Below are positions 13,296 to 49,735 of a stretch of DNA of 51,066 nucleotides, one piece after another. The stretch is from Parcubacteria group bacterium GW2011_GWD2_38_11. GTDB taxonomy: Bacteria > Patescibacteriota > Minisyncoccia > Moranbacterales > GWC2-37-73. A program made the position numbers and the translations under genes. The stretch spans positions 1-51,066 of the forward strand of contig LBTZ01000022.1 in assembly GCA_000992325.1 (NCBI GenBank). The letters run 5' to 3'. The notes under the pieces were generated by a model. That model made no database searches, was not told the DNA's origin, and saw only the letters and a program-made list of their open reading frames with translations. The number at the start of each line of letters is the position of its first letter. Position 1 is the stretch's first letter.

Positions 13296-13782
13296 TATAA
13301 TTTATCAAGTCAGTCAGGCAATCGCCCCGATTTATTGGGGAGGAAAGTCCGGACATTTCCTATGTAAATAGGAGCAAAGTAGCGGGTAACTCCCGTCCGT
13401 AGTGATGCGCGAGGTGCGAGCAGAGACGCCTTGATTTGAAAAAATCGGGCACCCTTCGGGGTGAGTCTTGATGGAAACATCAAGAGTGAAACGGCTAAAT
13501 CCTTACTTAAATGCAAGACCGTACTCCGATGCAAAGCATCGGGAATATCTAATTTCTAATATCTAATTTCTAATAAATTTCTAATATTTAATTTCAAATG
13601 TCTAAAATTTTTATTCATTGGTTATTAAAAAATTGGGATTTTATTGGAAATTGGAAATTGGTTATTGGTAATTCTGACGCTTTGCGTCGGTTTGTGTCGC
13701 TCGATCCCAATGGCAACATTGGGATAAGATAAATGATTGTCCCAGACAGAATCCGGCTTATCGGTTGGCTTGATAAATTATA
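13296..13782 (+). ncRNA. rnpB: RNase P RNA (type A-like) with ~165-nt insertion
   Basis: GAGGAAAGTCCGG, GTGAAACGG, P18 hairpin with GCAA loop, ACAGAATCCGGCTTA; ends pair as P1. Confidence 0.95.
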
Positions 13783-32571: not shown

Positions 32572-34767
32572 ATGAAAAAAAATCAAAAGTTTGGTTTTAT
32601 TGCAATACTCGTACTGCTAGCGAGTTTTGCATCAAGTGCCTCAGCCACCTATAGTCTGCCAGCTGATCGCAGTGTAACTTGGCAGGGTAATGTGGGTGTT
32701 TCGGGGGATATTCCAAATAGAACTACCGTGTGCAAAACGCTGAGTCCTTCTGGGGGCGACGATGCGGCTGCCATTCAAAGTGCGATTACTGCCTGTCCAG
32801 CGGAACAAGTTGTCAAATTGAATGCGGGAACATTTATCGTAAAGAGTCAAATAAAGTTGAAATCTAAAATTACCCTAAAAGGAGAAGGTATGGGTAAAAC
32901 TATTATCAAAGGTGCTGCTGGTATGACTGGTAAATCCGTCCTAACTATTGGAACTGGATGGTCATTTGGAACACCATTTAATATAAAAAGTGGCCTGTCA
33001 AAAGGCTCGGTTGTCATAACTGTTGCAGCTCCCCATAATTGGGTTGTTGGCGATGTCATAGTTGTTGATCAATTAAATAATCCATTGGGTGATCCTCCTG
33101 TGACAAATGTTGGTAATGGACCGAGTGTTCCAAATTGGACAGGAAGATCTGGAGGAACTCGTTCGCTAGGACAGATGATAAAAGTCACAAAGGTTCCGAC
33201 TACAACCTCTGCAGAATTGGAAATTCCTCTGTATTGGAATTATAATTCTAGCCTGTCCCCACAGGCGACCAAAATCAGTGGCTTAATTCAGAAGGCTGGT
33301 GTGGAGGATTTGACGGTTGATAATAATGATAGTGCAAACATTGGTCAAACTGATGCTAGTGGAGGAACAATAACGATCAATGCGGCTGAAAACTCTTGGC
33401 TTTATCGAGTTGAAGGTATAAAATCCTGGGAGTCATTGCTTAGAATTCAAGCTGCTTATCGTAACACCATCAGAAGTTGCAAGTTTCATGAGGTGTCTTC
33501 CAATACTTACATAGCCGAAACTAAACAGCGTGGCTATGGAGTAACTTGGTATTATTTTGCTTCTGGTAATTTGTTTGAGAATAATCAGTTATATCATTTT
33601 GGAGGCAATTTCTTCACAAGCGGGCAATTTTCGGGCAATGTGGTTGCTTATAACTCGATAAAAAATTCAGTTATAGATCCAACCTCTGCAAATTTTACGC
33701 GGCAAATGTTACTCAATCATGGCGCTCATGCAATGATGAATTTGTATGAAAGTAATGATATGGATGCCAGAATTGCATCGGATTTTTATTGGGGCACATC
33801 TAGTCATAATACTTTTTTTCGCAACCGAGTCAAAAACGTGGCTGGAAAAACGGGTGGTGTTTGGCTGGTTGATTTGATAAAAAATTCATATTATTTCAAT
33901 TTTGTTGGAAATGTTTTAGGGGTCGTGGGGGTAGAAACTGCTTATGAACAGGATGGCGTGACACTTACGGGCAAAAAATCAGTTTATCGTTTTGGTTATG
34001 AGCAGGATGGCGACGGCAGTCCTACGGGAAATGATTCAAAAGTAAGGCAGGTTACTCTTCGTCATGCAAATTGGAGCAGTATCACTGATCCTGTTGGTCC
34101 ACTTAAGGGGGCTGCTGGAATTATGTGGAATGGCAGTGATGATCGCACTTTGCCGACATCTTTCTATTTGACAGCTAAACCAACTTGGTGGGGAAATGGT
34201 GCTTGGCCAGCAATTGGTCCTGATCTTAATCCAATGACTAATGATATTCCGGCTATATCATTAAATACTACTCCAATAACTCCAACAACTCCAACCATCC
34301 CAACAACTCCAACTCCAACCCCAACTTCTGTTGGTTGTAATACTCTTACTTTTGTTTCTGGATTTACAAATCCTGTTTCTGTTGACGCTAATGTTACTTA
34401 TAATATGAGTTGTGATTATGGACTCGGAAATATAAATTCAATCAAGGCGAATAATGATTTGGGCAGTTGCTCATTTGCGGGATTTGTGGGAACGGCGGCA
34501 ACCTTCACTTGCAATGCTGGCATCGCTGGAACTCGCGTTAATACTTGTTCTCTAATTTCTGGAACTACAGCCAACACGTGCGCACAAACAAACCAGATCA
34601 ATACTGTGGCAGTTGGCAGTGCTCCTGTCGCTGTTACATATTCCTTAGTAAATTTTACAAATCTTAACAGTGATTGGCTTAAGACTGTAACTTCTCCTGC
34701 AGATGTGAACCAGGATGGAAATGTAAATGCTAGAGACTTGGGAATTATGATGAGTAATTGGAAATAA
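32572..34767 (+). CDS. secreted pectin-lyase-like beta-helix protein with Pro/Thr linker and C-terminal dockerin-like motif
   Basis: signal peptide, DDAAAIQSAI..C....VVKLNAGTF, Asn-rich coils, PT linker, DVNQDGNVNARDLGIMMSNW. Confidence 0.7.
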   Translation: MKKNQKFGFIAILVLLASFASSASATYSLPADRSVTWQGNVGVSGDIPNRTTVCKTLSPSGGDDAAAIQSAITACPAEQVVKLNAGTFIVKSQIKLKSKITLKGEGMGKTIIKGAAGMTGKSVLTIGTGWSFGTPFNIKSGLSKGSVVITVAAPHNWVVGDVIVVDQLNNPLGDPPVTNVGNGPSVPNWTGRSGGTRSLGQMIKVTKVPTTTSAELEIPLYWNYNSSLSPQATKISGLIQKAGVEDLTVDNNDSANIGQTDASGGTITINAAENSWLYRVEGIKSWESLLRIQAAYRNTIRSCKFHEVSSNTYIAETKQRGYGVTWYYFASGNLFENNQLYHFGGNFFTSGQFSGNVVAYNSIKNSVIDPTSANFTRQMLLNHGAHAMMNLYESNDMDARIASDFYWGTSSHNTFFRNRVKNVAGKTGGVWLVDLIKNSYYFNFVGNVLGVVGVETAYEQDGVTLTGKKSVYRFGYEQDGDGSPTGNDSKVRQVTLRHANWSSITDPVGPLKGAAGIMWNGSDDRTLPTSFYLTAKPTWWGNGAWPAIGPDLNPMTNDIPAISLNTTPITPTTPTIPTTPTPTPTSVGCNTLTFVSGFTNPVSVDANVTYNMSCDYGLGNINSIKANNDLGSCSFAGFVGTAATFTCNAGIAGTRVNTCSLISGTTANTCAQTNQINTVAVGSAPVAVTYSLVNFTNLNSDWLKTVTSPADVNQDGNVNARDLGIMMSNWK

Positions 34768-34808
34768 TTTTTCCATAATTAGCAATACAATTTTTTGAAA
34801 AAATAAAT

Positions 34809-35792
34809 ATGAATAATGAAAAAAAACAGCGACCAATCGACAATTTAACCAGTGAGTCATATGGCTGGCTAAAAAAAAGTTGGACAATTGTTAAAAAAAA
34901 TGATCTTCGTTGGTGGCAAACAGCTTTCATTCTTGCATTTTTTGCAGGCCTGTTTATCGCAATTGTTGTGGCCACAAGGTTGCAGATACAAACCAGCTCT
35001 GTGGCTAGTGGTGAGCAAGCAACACTTTCACTATATCCGGCAAACGCATCGGTTGTTGTTGGAGAATCTTTCAGTTCTGATATTATGTTGGACACAATGG
35101 GAAGTAATGTGGTGGCAGCAATGGCTGTTGTTTATTATAATCCTGATATTTTTGAGCTAACTAATTATAGTACTTCGAATTCAATCTTTGCTGCGGGTAA
35201 TGCTTGTGTATATAATGGTAAGCCATGTCAAATTATTAATAATGATCCATCCAGCGGAAAAATTGTTATAACCTTGGCAAAACCGAGACCAGGGGTAAAT
35301 GCTGCTTCGGGTAAAATTGCTACACTGAATTTCAAGGCACTTAAAGCAATTTCAGCTTCTACTATAAAAATTAATTTCACTTCAGTTGGAGAATATGCTG
35401 ATTCAAATGTAATTTTGGATGATGGTAAGGGAACGGATATATTAGCATCAGTAGCAAGCACAACCATAGCTGTTGCATCCCCATTAGTAACTTGTACAAG
35501 TTTTTCATATTCTGATTGGGGAGTGTGCTCTTCTAGTGGAATTCAATCTCGCACTATTGTGTTGGGTGGTCCTGCTGGATGCACTGGTGGAAGCCCTGTT
35601 TTGACACAGTCGTGTTCTTACGTTGAACTGACAACCACTGCCAATACCTGCACCAGTTTTGTATATTCAACTTGGAGTAAGTGTGTGTCTGGTTTTAAAA
35701 CACGCTCTATTAAAAGTAGCCTTCCTGTAGGTTGCACCGGTGGCAATCCTTCGCTGACTATTGCTTGTCCAATAAAAAACGTTAGAAAATAG
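34809..35792 (+). CDS. membrane-anchored cohesin-like domain protein with two Cys-rich TSP1-like repeats
   Basis: TM; VVVGESF...YNPDIF...SGKI.I...GKIATLNFKA; C.SF.YS.W..C....Q.R.....P.GC.GG.P repeats. Confidence 0.7.
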   Translation: MNNEKKQRPIDNLTSESYGWLKKSWTIVKKNDLRWWQTAFILAFFAGLFIAIVVATRLQIQTSSVASGEQATLSLYPANASVVVGESFSSDIMLDTMGSNVVAAMAVVYYNPDIFELTNYSTSNSIFAAGNACVYNGKPCQIINNDPSSGKIVITLAKPRPGVNAASGKIATLNFKALKAISASTIKINFTSVGEYADSNVILDDGKGTDILASVASTTIAVASPLVTCTSFSYSDWGVCSSSGIQSRTIVLGGPAGCTGGSPVLTQSCSYVELTTTANTCTSFVYSTWSKCVSGFKTRSIKSSLPVGCTGGNPSLTIACPIKNVRK

Positions 35793-35811
35793 TTTTTAAT
35801 GAATTTTTCTT

Positions 35812-36378
35812 ATGAAATGTTTTTATGCTACCAAAAAAGCTTTTACGCTCATTGAGCTTTTGATTGCTATTGCAATTATTGGTATTTTAGCCTCGGTTGT
35901 TTTAGTTAGCACAAGCGATGCCCGCAAAAAAGCTAAGGATGTTTCAATTATACAATCCACCTATTCAATGATGTCGGCAGCGAATATTGATGGCGTGGGT
36001 GGTAACTATTCTCCCTGGTTTGCTGGTAGTGATCCGATCCCGGCTAATCGTGGAAATATTAATTCTGTTGCTGATTGTGATTTGTACTTCAATTTGGCAT
36101 ATCAGGCGACAGCAAAGGCGGCATGCAAAAAAATTATAACTGATATAAATGGTTCTGTCGCAAGACCACTATGGGTGGGTTCGTGGGAAACTCCAACTTT
36201 CGGAAAATATTATTCAATCGTGGCTTGGCTTCCAAGCGCTGGAAAATATTATTGCATAGGATCAAATGAAAAAAATTCAAAAGAAACAGTTGCTGATGGT
36301 AGTGGATGTGGTGGCATAGCTAATAAATGGCTATGTCCTGGCTGCCCAGGCGCACTTAAAGCTACTGATGGCAAATAG
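35812..36378 (+). CDS. type IV pilin / pseudopilin
   Basis: class III signal KKA|FTLIELL with hydrophobic helix. Confidence 0.85.
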   Translation: MKCFYATKKAFTLIELLIAIAIIGILASVVLVSTSDARKKAKDVSIIQSTYSMMSAANIDGVGGNYSPWFAGSDPIPANRGNINSVADCDLYFNLAYQATAKAACKKIITDINGSVARPLWVGSWETPTFGKYYSIVAWLPSAGKYYCIGSNEKNSKETVADGSGCGGIANKWLCPGCPGALKATDGK

Positions 36379-37727: not shown

Positions 37728-38630
37728 CTACTTTTTTTTGAGTGCAAGCATCTGTTCAGATGCCTTGTTCAATTCTTCTTCGATGGGTTTTTCAAGATCC
37801 AGTATATGTGTGGCAATTGTCACGCTAATTGGAATCTTTTTGTATCCATACGCGGGATTTTCAATAGGAACAGCTAGTGCGTGGATATTGTTGATTCCAA
37901 CTTCCAATCTTTTTTTAATGTAATCTGTTTTTCGAACATTTCCTGGTGATGTGTTTTCATATAAGATGATCATTAAAAATTCATCTCCTCCGAAACGACA
38001 ACCAGGCTCCTCCCTGCGCGCAGTTTCGTGAATAGCTCGAGCAACTTCAATGATAGCCCTGTCGCCGCCGTTGCTGTGTCCAAACTCTGAGTTAATATCC
38101 TTTAATTTATCCAAATCGATAAATAAAATGTGGATCTCTCCCTTTGTTCGCTTTGCTTTGGCGGAGTATTGCTTGAGGGTCCTCACGATACCTCTGCGAT
38201 TCAAAAGCCCCGTGAGATGATCTTCCATAATCAACTCCTCAATCGAATACAATTTTTCCAATAGCAAGTCCTTTTCGTTTTCCCAGTTTAGTTCGGCATT
38301 TTTTACTGTCAGGAATTCTTCATTAAGTTTCTTATGCTTATATTCAGATCTTGCTTCTTTTCTGATAAAATTGGTGTAGATAACTGATCCACAAAACAAA
38401 ATTGCCAGAACTGTGACATCCATACTAATGCGTAATTGGTGTATGCTTAATTGACTCACTTGAAGCATCCCTAGGATGTTCATAAAAATAGAATCAAACG
38501 CAAACACTCCACCGCAAGCAGTTATCGACCTGAAAAGCTGACGATGCCAAGAATCTAAGCTGATCCACCAACTATTGGGACCCTTGCCTCCTTTAAAAAT
38601 CATCACATCTTTAATTTTGTTTTTGCTCAC
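37728..38630 (-). CDS. membrane-anchored diguanylate cyclase (GGDEF)
   Basis: two TM helices, coiled coil, DHLTGLLNRR, FIDLDKLKDINSEFGH..GD, RFGGDEF; GTG start with GGAGG SD; TTGACA-17-TATAAA promoter at 38705-38677. Confidence 0.9.
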   Translation of the reverse strand: MSKNKIKDVMIFKGGKGPNSWWISLDSWHRQLFRSITACGGVFAFDSIFMNILGMLQVSQLSIHQLRISMDVTVLAILFCGSVIYTNFIRKEARSEYKHKKLNEEFLTVKNAELNWENEKDLLLEKLYSIEELIMEDHLTGLLNRRGIVRTLKQYSAKAKRTKGEIHILFIDLDKLKDINSEFGHSNGGDRAIIEVARAIHETARREEPGCRFGGDEFLMIILYENTSPGNVRKTDYIKKRLEVGINNIHALAVPIENPAYGYKKIPISVTIATHILDLEKPIEEELNKASEQMLALKKK

Positions 38631-47638: not shown

Positions 47639-49027
47639 TTATTTGATCCAGACCATACTTGTCTTTGAAGCACTCTTGCCTTTGCCTCCAGATTTGCTGT
47701 AGGCTTTAACCTTTAGAAGATGTGGTCCTCTGCCAACATTCAAAGGCACGATGTAGGAAGCAGTTCTCTTGGTCACTGTTTTTCCATTGAAAGTAACTTT
47801 GTATGATTTTGCATTTTTAGCTTTCCACCAAATGCGATCGCCTCTGTTTTTGTTTAGTGTCACTGGGAGGCTGCTTATTTTTGGTTTTTTGTCTGCAACC
47901 TTCTTCTTATCATTGGAATCACAAGATTGGGTTAATTGAGGATTTCCGCCAACGCAACCAGAAGGTGAAGATGTTGTCACAGTTCTGGTTTGTTGATTGT
48001 TCTCGCAAGAACTCCAATCGGAATAATCAAACAGGGAACATCCAGAAGGTGTATATGAACAAGATTGTGTTAAGATTGGATCTCCGCCGGAGCACTCAGT
48101 AGGAATGCTGGATAAAACTGTTCTTGATTGTGTGCTGTCAGGTTGACATACACTCCAGTCCGTATAAGTAAATGATGAGCAACTTATTTGCAGTGTAGTA
48201 TTGTCTGTCTCTGCAAAGGTGCACTTTTGTGAAAGAATTGGATTTCCTCCGACACAACCGCTGGGAATACTTGATGTGGTTGTTCTTGACTGGGTGCTAT
48301 CTGGTTGGCATATGCTCCAATCAGTATAAGTGAATGATTCGCATTGTTGACCCAGTATAACTAAAGTGTATTCTGTAATATTTTGTAAAATATCAGTTCC
48401 AACCCCATCATCAATAATTACATCTGAATCATCAAGATTACCCGATGCAACAAAGTTTATTTCAATGTCATTTTCATTGGCGGATACTGGCTGTAAGGCT
48501 TTAAAGGTGAAAGAGCCCACATTGCCGGAAGATGTGCTTATACCAGGGGTGGGCTTGCTTAGTGTGATAGCAATTCTTCCATTATCGCGATCATCCTCAA
48601 TAATTTCACAAGCTTTACCGTTGTACTGACAAGGATTATTCGTGGCAAAAACAGAGTTGGATGTGTCCCAATCAATCAATTGCACAGCTTGCTTATTAAA
48701 ATCCAGAATCAGTCTGCTGGCAACAACATTATTTCCTTGTGTGTTTAAAATAGCATCAACTGTAAAAGTGTCACCCACGACAATTTCATCACTTTCTGAA
48801 TATAAAATTAGTGATGCTTGAGGTGTTGTGGCGTCGGAAAATATTTGCAGATCGTAATTTACAGTCCAAATAAGTGTCCCAAAAATTCCTGTTACTAATG
48901 AAAGAATGACAGCACCTTTCCAGGAACTGATTTCCTTTTTGGTTACAAATCTCCAACTTCTACTAAAAAACCCATAAGAATTGTCGGCGATTTCATCTAT
49001 GGGTCGCGTTGATTTTTTTCTTTCCAT
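47639..49027 (-). CDS. membrane-anchored cohesin-like protein with three Cys-rich TSP1-like repeats and basic Ig-like C-terminus; paralog of 34809-35792
   Basis: shared RPID...SYG...SW N-terminus, C.YNGK.C.II motif, C.SF.Y.DWS.C repeats. Confidence 0.72.
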   Translation of the reverse strand: MERKKSTRPIDEIADNSYGFFSRSWRFVTKKEISSWKGAVILSLVTGIFGTLIWTVNYDLQIFSDATTPQASLILYSESDEIVVGDTFTVDAILNTQGNNVVASRLILDFNKQAVQLIDWDTSNSVFATNNPCQYNGKACEIIEDDRDNGRIAITLSKPTPGISTSSGNVGSFTFKALQPVSANENDIEINFVASGNLDDSDVIIDDGVGTDILQNITEYTLVILGQQCESFTYTDWSICQPDSTQSRTTTSSIPSGCVGGNPILSQKCTFAETDNTTLQISCSSFTYTDWSVCQPDSTQSRTVLSSIPTECSGGDPILTQSCSYTPSGCSLFDYSDWSSCENNQQTRTVTTSSPSGCVGGNPQLTQSCDSNDKKKVADKKPKISSLPVTLNKNRGDRIWWKAKNAKSYKVTFNGKTVTKRTASYIVPLNVGRGPHLLKVKAYSKSGGKGKSASKTSMVWIK

Positions 49028-49060
49028 ATTTTTATTTTTTTATTTCAATTTTCTGTAAAC

Positions 49061-49198
49061 AAAAAACCTAAACCAATCATTCCCAATAGGGGATAATCAA
49101 TTTAGGTCGGTTCTGCAAGTCAACTCCCCGCGATTCATTAGCAGCCAGGAATTTTGGCATATAAAGGAATTTCACAACGCGGATCAAAGCTTCCTAAA
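49061..49198 (-). promoter_or_regulatory. c-di-GMP-II-like riboswitch aptamer (49198-49101) with overlapping intrinsic terminator (49107-49061)
   Basis: minus strand: TTTAGGAAGCTTTGAT-CCGCG..GGCTGC..CGCGG-GGAGTTGACTTGCAGAACCGACCTAAA. Confidence 0.7.
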
Positions 49199-49279
49199 AA
49201 TAAAGTATAATACTTTATTTTAGTATAGCATAAATTAAAAATTATACATAGTATAATAATATTTTTTGATATCAAACAA

Positions 49280-49735
49280 TTAGGCGAGTGGGATTTGGAT
49301 AAGTTTCACAATATCAGCAATTGTTATAACTCCAACCAGTTCATTGTTTTCGGAAATTACTGGAACAGTGTGCAGCTTGGATTCCTTTATGAGTTTAAAC
49401 ATTGCTGAGATATCATCATCAGGACAAAGTGTGGTGCAATTTTCAGACATAATATCCACCGCTCTTGCTTCTAGCAATTGTTTGAATTGCTGCTGCTTTT
49501 TTTCATCCATTGAATTCTCAGAGACAGTATTTTTCAAAAAATCAATAAAGAATGGAAGGTAGACTTCATTTTTTGTGAAAAAATCAGTTTCAGTTATTAT
49601 TCCAACCAATTTGGAATCAGAGACCACTGGAACTCCGTGAATGCGATTTGTATGCAAGATTTTTGCAACGTCGGTAATTTTAGTATCGACAGTTACGGAT
49701 ATGACATTGCTCGTCATTGCTTCCTTGATTTTCAT
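49280..49735 (-). CDS. tandem CBS domain protein
   Basis: PVV...LVGIITETD and PVI....LVGVITIADI. Confidence 0.88.
   Translation of the reverse strand: MKIKEAMTSNVISVTVDTKITDVAKILHTNRIHGVPVVSDSKLVGIITETDFFTKNEVYLPFFIDFLKNTVSENSMDEKKQQQFKQLLEARAVDIMSENCTTLCPDDDISAMFKLIKESKLHTVPVISENNELVGVITIADIVKLIQIPLA

Follow-up and report, generated by a model that had tools for sequence, protein, structure and literature searches.

Class II cyclic di-GMP (c-di-GMP) riboswitches are ON switches for pilin and adhesin genes in C. difficile. RNAs of this class (Rfam family RF01786; structure 3Q3Z, from Clostridium acetobutylicum) are built of three helices, P1, P2 and P3, with a kink-turn and a pseudoknot between the loop and the 3' tail of the form GG-NNNN / NNNN-AA-CC. 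We analyzed a stretch of 51,066 nucleotides (nt) from Parcubacteria group bacterium GW2011_GWD2_38_11 (contig LBTZ01000022.1; the whole stretch is called the window below), in which the minus-strand leader of the gene at 47639-49027 has these same parts, together with the AACCG core, the ceiling adenine, an A-U first P2 pair, an ON-type terminator platform and a surface/biofilm type of target gene. The element departs from RF01786 by about 23 extra nt in the 5' half of the P3 loop, one extra nt placed after the P2 3' strand and before the ceiling adenine, a C at the equivalent of G62 (A in most of its subfamily), a pseudoknot CUGC/GCAG where the canonical one is GCAC/GUGC, and its host, an ultra-small groundwater bacterium of the Patescibacteria with a ~0.94-Mb genome. 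With a probability of roughly 0.75, we consider this leader to be a transcriptional ON riboswitch and a likely c-di-GMP sensor, whose aptamer is an enlarged, lineage-specific form of the class II c-di-GMP fold.

A sequence-only reading of the window had proposed a variant c-di-GMP-II riboswitch at this place, and every part that it listed for P1, the kink-turn, the P3 stem and the 3' elements is present on the minus strand. Leader positions are given by the RNA index i (window coordinate = 49204 - i, minus strand). Scores refer to RF01786 and to two covariance models, R1, built from eight long-loop members, and R2, a leave-one-out model of 35 members from other genomes. The parts are:

49096..49203, minus strand: aptamer of c-di-GMP-II type, long-loop subfamily, 108 nt (full-length RF01786 alignment, 25.7 bits; R1, 97.6 bits; R2, 81.5 bits, E 1e-20)
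49193..49198, minus strand: P1 5' strand UUUAGG, U6-G11 (sequence; double changes in 6 of 6 family P1 pairs)
49101..49106, minus strand: P1 3' strand CCUAAA, C98-A103, also within the terminator 5' arm (6 of 6 nt pair downstream in the minimum-energy fold)
49184..49191, minus strand: P2 5' strand AGC, A13-C15, with the 3-nt bulge UUU, U16-U18, and the kink-turn G.A/A.G step (Rfam alignment)
49122..49126, minus strand: kink-turn GA and P2 3' strand GUU, G80-U82 (Rfam alignment, family covariation, pocket description)
49178..49183, minus strand: P3 5' strand UCCGCG, U21-G26 (double changes in 6 of 7 P3 pairs)
49127..49132, minus strand: P3 3' strand CGCGGG, C72-G77 (sequence and family covariation)
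49148..49177, minus strand: subfamily-specific insertion within the P3 loop, 5' half (the loop has 34 residues, that of the Rfam consensus 11)
49141..49146, minus strand: pseudoknot loop strand GG-CUGC, i 58-63 (the GG pairs in 32 of 32 and 31 of 32 members)
49108..49121, minus strand: 3' core G-A-CU-U-GCAG-AA-CC-G (Rfam alignment mapping, pocket description in PMC13715770, family conservation)
49065..49108, minus strand: intrinsic terminator hairpin GACCUAAAUUGAUUAUC...GAUGAUUGGUUUAGGUU, 44 nt, G96-U139, overlapping the aptamer 3' end (folding, -20.9 kcal/mol alone)
49061..49066, minus strand: terminator U-run, U6 (sequence)

The kink-turn reads GAAGC-UUU-GA opposite GGAG, with G19.A79 and A20.G78 coming after a 3-nt bulge, and its G/A columns are kept in 28-32 of 32 family members. 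The first P2 pair, A13-U82, is the equivalent of A14-U60 in 3Q3Z. The loop strand GGCUGC is complementary to GCAG (88-91) plus CC (94-95) across the bulged A92 and A93, and the 3' core holds, in order, the extra junction nt (49121), the A61 equivalent (49120), the pseudoknot strand (49116-49113), the A69 and A70 equivalents (49112-49111), the CC (49110-49109) and the G73 equivalent (49108). The P3 loop is indeed far longer than canonical, as had been noted from the sequence. The leader folds with a z of -3.34, none of 200 shuffles folding equally well.

At Rfam gathering thresholds there was no match at the leader, and the only matches in the window were RNase P and two tRNAs. With permissive filters, the best match in 48950-49330 was c-di-GMP-II, covering the full model (1-84) with an E of 0.0014 over the whole genome. 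The sequence-only reading had suggested a search with this model and with its GAG and GCG variants (RF03169 and RF03170), which belong to the same clan and have the same backbone; the similarity to c-di-GMP-II is thus there over the full length, though not above threshold. Both variant models scored below the parent (GAG 22.8 bits, cut-off 40; GCG 19.2 bits, cut-off 47.9). The GAG consensus (...AgUGGCGAGACCG) has GAG at positions 67-69 where the parent (...AGUgGUGCAACCG) has GCA, so that this variant would replace A69 with G, a definition that comes from the Rfam consensus lines of GAG and the parent; for GCG, the criterion used was G-C-G at positions 67-69. Positions 67-69 read AGA in the window's element and AAA or GAA in its relatives; position 69 is therefore parent-like in all of them, being A in the element and all 32 relatives and G in the GAG consensus. 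Because of the lower scores and the G required at position 69, we rejected assignment to GAG or GCG. The GAG consensus loop (GGuCGCC) and its A at position 68 do resemble most of the Moranbacteria subfamily. The label "variant" applies to the architecture of the element and not to its ligand pocket, where the equivalents of A61, A69, A70 and G73 are kept. In a separate observation, the Rfam GAG model accepted above its cut-off sequences with A where the variant takes its name from a G (GCGAAACCG or GCAAAACCG; loci L036:1502-1594, L084:5285-5377, L079:1873-1981 and L089:1444-1529), which means that automatic annotation would mislabel them.

The host genome (935,829 bases in 39 contigs, rated 90% complete) belongs to an order in which canonical c-di-GMP-II RNAs occur above the cut-off, at 54-72 bits, in 4 of 101 genomes. 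Several of the same 101 genomes have sub-threshold RF01786 matches of about 108 nt, like that of the window. The canonical-length copies of the order (for example, one of 72 bits in genome G011 and a tandem pair of 62 and 58 bits in G043) share the core, the terminator overlap and similar secreted-protein targets with the element, but lack the loop insertion and the extra junction nt and keep AGU after P2. BLASTN found the element in two genomes of the same genus, and the P3 stem shows compensatory changes among these copies (CCGCG/CGCGG, CCACAU/AUGUGG and CCGUUUUU/AAAAACGG). When 150 genomes of the order were searched with R1, 27 had matches, 43 in all and often several to a genome; two of these 27 carriers (24 bits each) are doubtful in alignment. 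The canonical copies were recovered by R1 at 24-38 bits, and intermediate lengths (93-104 nt) exist. R2 found the element as its sole match in the window and in the genome.

A pattern derived from the subfamily, which recovers 21 of 33 confident members and none of 12 other rows (canonical or doubtful), was used to scan a species-genome collection and yielded 39 stretches, in which R1 confirmed 33 matches. All 25 R1 matches of at least 55 bits lie in records titled Moraniibacteriota/Moranbacteria, Patescibacteria, Parcubacteria or Paceibacterota, bar one titled Bdellovibrionales, whose score is identical to that of a Moranbacteria record. The 8 weaker matches, seven of about 85-106 nt and one of 110 nt, come from records titled Chloroflexota/Chloroflexia, Dehalococcoidia or Proteobacteria; Rfam models matched five places in three of these records (four hits to GAG, one to the parent class). 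When 150 other genomes of the phylum, sampled evenly, were searched with R2, it detected 85-91-nt forms only, in 5 genomes. Among the genomes searched, the ~108-nt form was not found outside the order. Only one of 21 copies (20 loci) passes any Rfam cut-off, namely the shortest subfamily member, which is called GAG at 43.1 bits. On sequence grounds, the long-loop form is a lineage-specific subfamily missed by standard annotation, and the element adds a structural variant to the class II c-di-GMP riboswitches already known.

Covariation was tested for P1, P2, P3 and the pseudoknot in an alignment (A3) of 33 confident members, 32 of them distinct. Standard pairs fill 93.1% of cells, compared with 83.3% in shuffles, and changes on both sides of a pair were found in 18 of 23 pairs (108 cells). 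None of 500 shuffles did as well as the real alignment on four of the five measures; on the remaining one, further pair types, 57 of 500 did. Sliding the partners by 1-3 columns lowered pairing to 32-47%. The P1, P2 and P3 helices are 83-96% paired, with double changes in 14 of 16 pairs, and the pseudoknot is paired in 97.3% of cells, with double changes in 4 of 7 pairs. The covariation that had been suggested as a check is therefore strong and supports all four helices. Its main pseudoknot columns are:

columns 68/103: U-A 22, C-G 10
columns 69/102: G-C 29, A-U 3
columns 71/100: C-G 14, U-G 8, U-A 6
columns 67/104: U-A 30, C-G 1 (the element of the window)

One of the four central pseudoknot pairs is thus private to the window's genome, where C-G at 67/104 is a unique double change, and the other three are common to relatives. 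Since the pseudoknot covaries even though it lies outside the model of the alignment, the description of GG-CUGC and GCAG-AA-CC as fully compensatory was right.

The loop insertion is conserved in length, with a median of 27.5 nt over the 32 members and 26-31 nt in most. A stable hairpin is formed by the insertions of 12 of 32 members, whereas that of the window's element is essentially unstructured (-0.5 kcal/mol); a conserved hairpin as a general feature was ruled out on these grounds. The ends of the insertion (A3 columns 29-64; window 49177-49148) show recurring purine-rich GAGAUGA-like and AUGAUUGG-like sequences, with no consistent hairpin. The extra nt that separates the P2 3' strand from the ceiling adenine is variable in the subfamily. 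Pairing of this nt with the P1/P2 linker was considered and rejected, as the two positions show no Watson-Crick covariation (A/G 10, A/A 8, G/G 5).

In 3Q3Z, A61 forms the ceiling of the ligand pocket, A69 reads G-alpha through three hydrogen bonds, A70 lies intercalated between both bases, G73 reads G-beta, and the first P2 pair, A14-U60, is stacked on the ligand backbone (PMC13715770). Mapped through the Rfam alignment, A61 corresponds to A84, A69 to A92, A70 to A93, G73 to G96 and A14-U60 to A13-U82, and all are present in the element. In the family, the equivalents of A61, U63, A69, A70, C71 and C72 are invariant (32 of 32 members), that of G73 is G in 29 of 32 (C in 2, a gap in 1), and 20 members have G-C and 6 have A-U as the first P2 pair. 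Neither the loop insertion, nor the extra junction nt, nor the change of G62 is at a contact position. Because all class II ligand-contact positions are kept, c-di-GMP is the likely ligand of the window's element. The sequence-only reading had named c-di-GMP or a related dinucleotide; the former appears to be the better guess, and the parent-like pocket speaks against the latter.

The aptamer is joined to a terminator in such a way that both cannot form at once. The terminator hairpin (49108-49065) contains all of CCUAAA in its 5' arm, so the whole P1 3' strand is shared, as had been seen before, and UUUAGG of the P1 5' strand and GGUUUAGGU of the terminator 3' arm, nearly the same sequence, compete for it. 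A simple terminator scan did not list this hairpin, which was found by folding. The 154-nt leader has its minimum-energy fold in the terminator state (-43.7 kcal/mol); with P1, P2 and P3 forced and the pseudoknot strands left free, the value is -20.6 kcal/mol. The default state would therefore be termination, and P1 and the pseudoknot, if stabilized by ligand, would act as anti-terminator and make the element an ON switch. A strict platform test was passed by 26 of 32 distinct members: at least 4 of the 6 P1 3' nt had to pair with downstream sequence in a hairpin, and the 9 nt after it had to include at least 5 U. Among the six misses, three pair 3 of 6 nt, one pairs 4 of 6 with only 4 U in 9, and two pair none. 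In many members the terminator 3' arm ends in GGYCGG and covers the ACCGRC core as well. The modeled folds and this recurring anti-terminator design fit the transcriptional ON logic that had been proposed from the sequence.

According to this mechanism, in the absence of ligand the P1 3' strand and the adjacent core would pair downstream, the intrinsic terminator would form, and transcription would stop 34 nt before the start codon (U-run end at 49061, ATG at 49027). c-di-GMP, which would be supplied by the genome's own two GGDEF cyclases, would bind between P1 and the pseudoknot, where it would be read by the A92/A93/G96 trio under the A84 ceiling. By locking P1 and the pseudoknot, the ligand would withhold the terminator 5' arm and allow read-through into the downstream gene, which encodes a cohesin-like protein. 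The gene and a promoter-like site upstream of the leader are:

47639..49027, minus strand: regulated gene, for a 462-aa protein that is membrane-anchored at its N terminus and has a cohesin-like domain, repeats containing Cys and, at its C terminus, a beta domain (homologue alignments)
49248..49275, minus strand: weak candidate sigma-70-type promoter TTGATA-16-TACTAT (9 of 12 matches)

The promoter-like site is not significant, as one was found where 2.9 are expected by chance. Directly upstream of the riboswitch, on the same strand, lies a gene for a CBS-pair protein (151 aa, 49280-49735, minus strand).

The 462-aa protein has no Pfam hit of its own, Cohesin (PF00963) included, even at E<=10. 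Homologues at 38-47% identity carry Cohesin (five of five tested are above the cut-off), with the domain aligning to residues ~90-190 of the regulated protein and the Cys repeats aligning too, and a paralogue in the window (34809-35792, 42% identity) has Cohesin above the cut-off at 33.4 bits. Through these homologues and the paralogue, the target appears to be a membrane-anchored surface protein with a cohesin-like domain and Cys repeats, in line with the cohesin/Cys-repeat surface protein of the sequence-only reading.

Targets of the other family members were taken, by a heuristic, as the longest open reading frame (ORF) starting within 600 nt downstream, which gave 31 ORFs after one near-identical locus was left out. 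Their Pfam contents are:

family-2 glycosyltransferase: 6
Peptidase_M73/TasA-like: 6
fn3: 2, one also with dockerin
LTD, Kelch, GH81, Gly_rich_2, Ser_hydrolase and PDDEXK_3: 1 each
F5/8-type C: 1, sub-threshold
without any Pfam hit: 11

The predicted targets of the family are thus surface, fibre and polysaccharide genes. Tandem aptamer-plus-terminator units stand before one gene in two genomes, G129 (L046:1501-1592 and 1662-1754, before a glycosyltransferase) and G043 (L008:1501-1587 and 1690-1776, before a secreted protein); both G129 copies have C at the position equivalent to G73. The paralogue of the regulated gene is the second gene of a three-gene cluster in the window (32572-36378, plus strand) and has no riboswitch of its own. 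The first gene of the cluster encodes a 731-aa pectate-lyase-like beta-helix protein with a sub-threshold C-terminal dockerin repeat (18.8 bits, cut-off 22.9), and the third a pilin-like protein with an N_methyl motif. In a genome of the same genus (G002), the riboswitch precedes a gene for an fn3+Dockerin_1 protein. Taken together, the cluster and the G002 context hint at a cohesin-dockerin surface assembly under c-di-GMP control.

Two GGDEF proteins are encoded in the host genome, their motifs intact (RFGGDEF and RLGGDEF); one of them is membrane-anchored and lies in the window (37728-38630, minus strand), about 10 kb from the riboswitch. Within the order, GGDEF is present in 15 of the 27 genomes that carry R1 matches and in 50 of the 123 that do not. 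In one taxonomic family, the RNA occurs in 5 of 18 genomes and GGDEF in none of the 18.

Several results weigh against the element being a c-di-GMP switch as described. Its RF01786 score is less than half of the gathering score (25.7 against 53.5 bits), and real changes near the pocket may account for part of this shortfall: the C at the G62 equivalent (A in 27 of 32 members), the one extra nt after the P2 3' strand and the ~28-nt loop insertion. EAL and HD-GYP (HD_5) phosphodiesterases were not found in the 90%-complete host genome. Alignment A3 was fitted to the P1-P3 model and so favors those helices in the covariation test, the pseudoknot being outside that model. The RNA is absent upstream of all 14 loci that encode homologues of the regulated gene. 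The sequence-only reading had listed conservation upstream of orthologs among its tests, and none of the 14 homologue loci has the RNA; the leader is therefore modular, conserved before functionally similar genes and not with one gene. Finally, 12 of the 27 carrier genomes have no detectable GGDEF, and c-di-GMP made by the cell is therefore not the universal ligand source of the family. In these genomes (G021, G027, G043, G064, G075, G095, G105, G117, G126, G129, G132 and G141), ten of which are at least 90% complete and two rated 100%, a renewed search at E<=10 gave one 9.8-bit GGDEF fragment only. They keep an intact pocket and terminator before fibre, adhesin and polysaccharide genes. The window's genome has cyclases, and these carriers say nothing directly about it.

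The alternative that survives best keeps the fold and the ON mechanism but shifts the specificity of the aptamer to another cyclic dinucleotide or a related nucleotide signal. The changes beside the pocket would fit such a shift (G62 to A or C, the extra junction nt, and an A-U instead of C-G at position 68, which is G-C here), as would the carriers that lack GGDEF. Canonical and long-loop copies also coexist in three genomes (G011, G021 and G043), and GEMM-I classes with different ligands coexist in one genome, the sole precedent known to us. In addition, cyclic GMP-AMP (cGAMP) isomers are reported to be bound by a variant that was derived from a c-di-GMP-II RNA mutant with a single nucleotide deleted (PMC13715770). 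On the other side, the equivalents of the 3Q3Z contact bases are conserved throughout the family as given above, including A69, the residue changed in the known natural variants. No synthase for another such signal was found either, DAC and SMODS being undetected in the 90%-complete host genome and in the 12 GGDEF-less carriers (DAC 0 of 12; SMODS 0 of 12 above the cut-off), and the targets are the classic c-di-GMP output set. We therefore regard a shifted specificity as possible but unlikely.

A related and equally tentative proposal, improbable in our estimation, is that the long-loop switch of Moranbacteria is an orphan sensor, by which host-dependent ultra-small bacteria would read a cyclic dinucleotide that they do not make themselves and thereby trigger their surface attachment machinery. 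The signal could then be c-di-GMP derived from the host or the community, or another ligand selected by the remodeled junction, and the cohesin-like protein may dock dockerin-bearing partners.

Much less probable is that the leader is a decayed riboswitch relic, or a constitutive attenuator or terminator that no longer binds a ligand. Such decay would agree with an Rfam score under threshold, an insertion that is essentially unstructured in the window's element and a single copy in the genome. It is at odds with a pseudoknot that is maintained through a double compensatory change which only this genome has, with pocket bases that are all intact, with the leave-one-out score of 81.5 bits and with the compensatory P3 changes in the same-genus copies. 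The idea that the leader is a protein-binding element, such as the site of a kink-turn-binding protein, and not a small-molecule sensor, can draw on the conserved kink-turn and is the least credible of all, as the architecture of class II c-di-GMP aptamers includes the kink-turn as an integral part (PMC13715770; PMC4316175) and the conserved AACCG core and pseudoknot would have no role in it.

Apart from the riboswitch, the RNase P RNA of the window (class A, 13306-13776, plus strand, 127.7 bits) differs from the model in its shortened helices and in an insertion of 127 nt at a place for which the model has 15 positions.

A literature search found nothing on natural c-di-GMP riboswitches in Patescibacteria or the Candidate Phyla Radiation, and the passages checked in papers on the Candidate Phyla Radiation and riboswitches mention only synthetic riboswitches. 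To our knowledge, almost nothing is known about gene regulation in the Candidate Phyla Radiation. The c-di-GMP switch reading preferred here would extend a well-studied riboswitch class into this radiation, in a form invisible to standard annotation. Given that some carriers lack any cyclase, one has to ask where the ligand originates, and the subfamily provides a natural experiment on how insertions near the pocket tune a cyclic-dinucleotide aptamer. For the organisms themselves, the finding would offer a testable link from second-messenger signaling to proteins of the surface or of attachment, among them cohesin/dockerin-type proteins, TasA-like fibres and polysaccharide synthases, in bacteria that are thought to live attached to a host.

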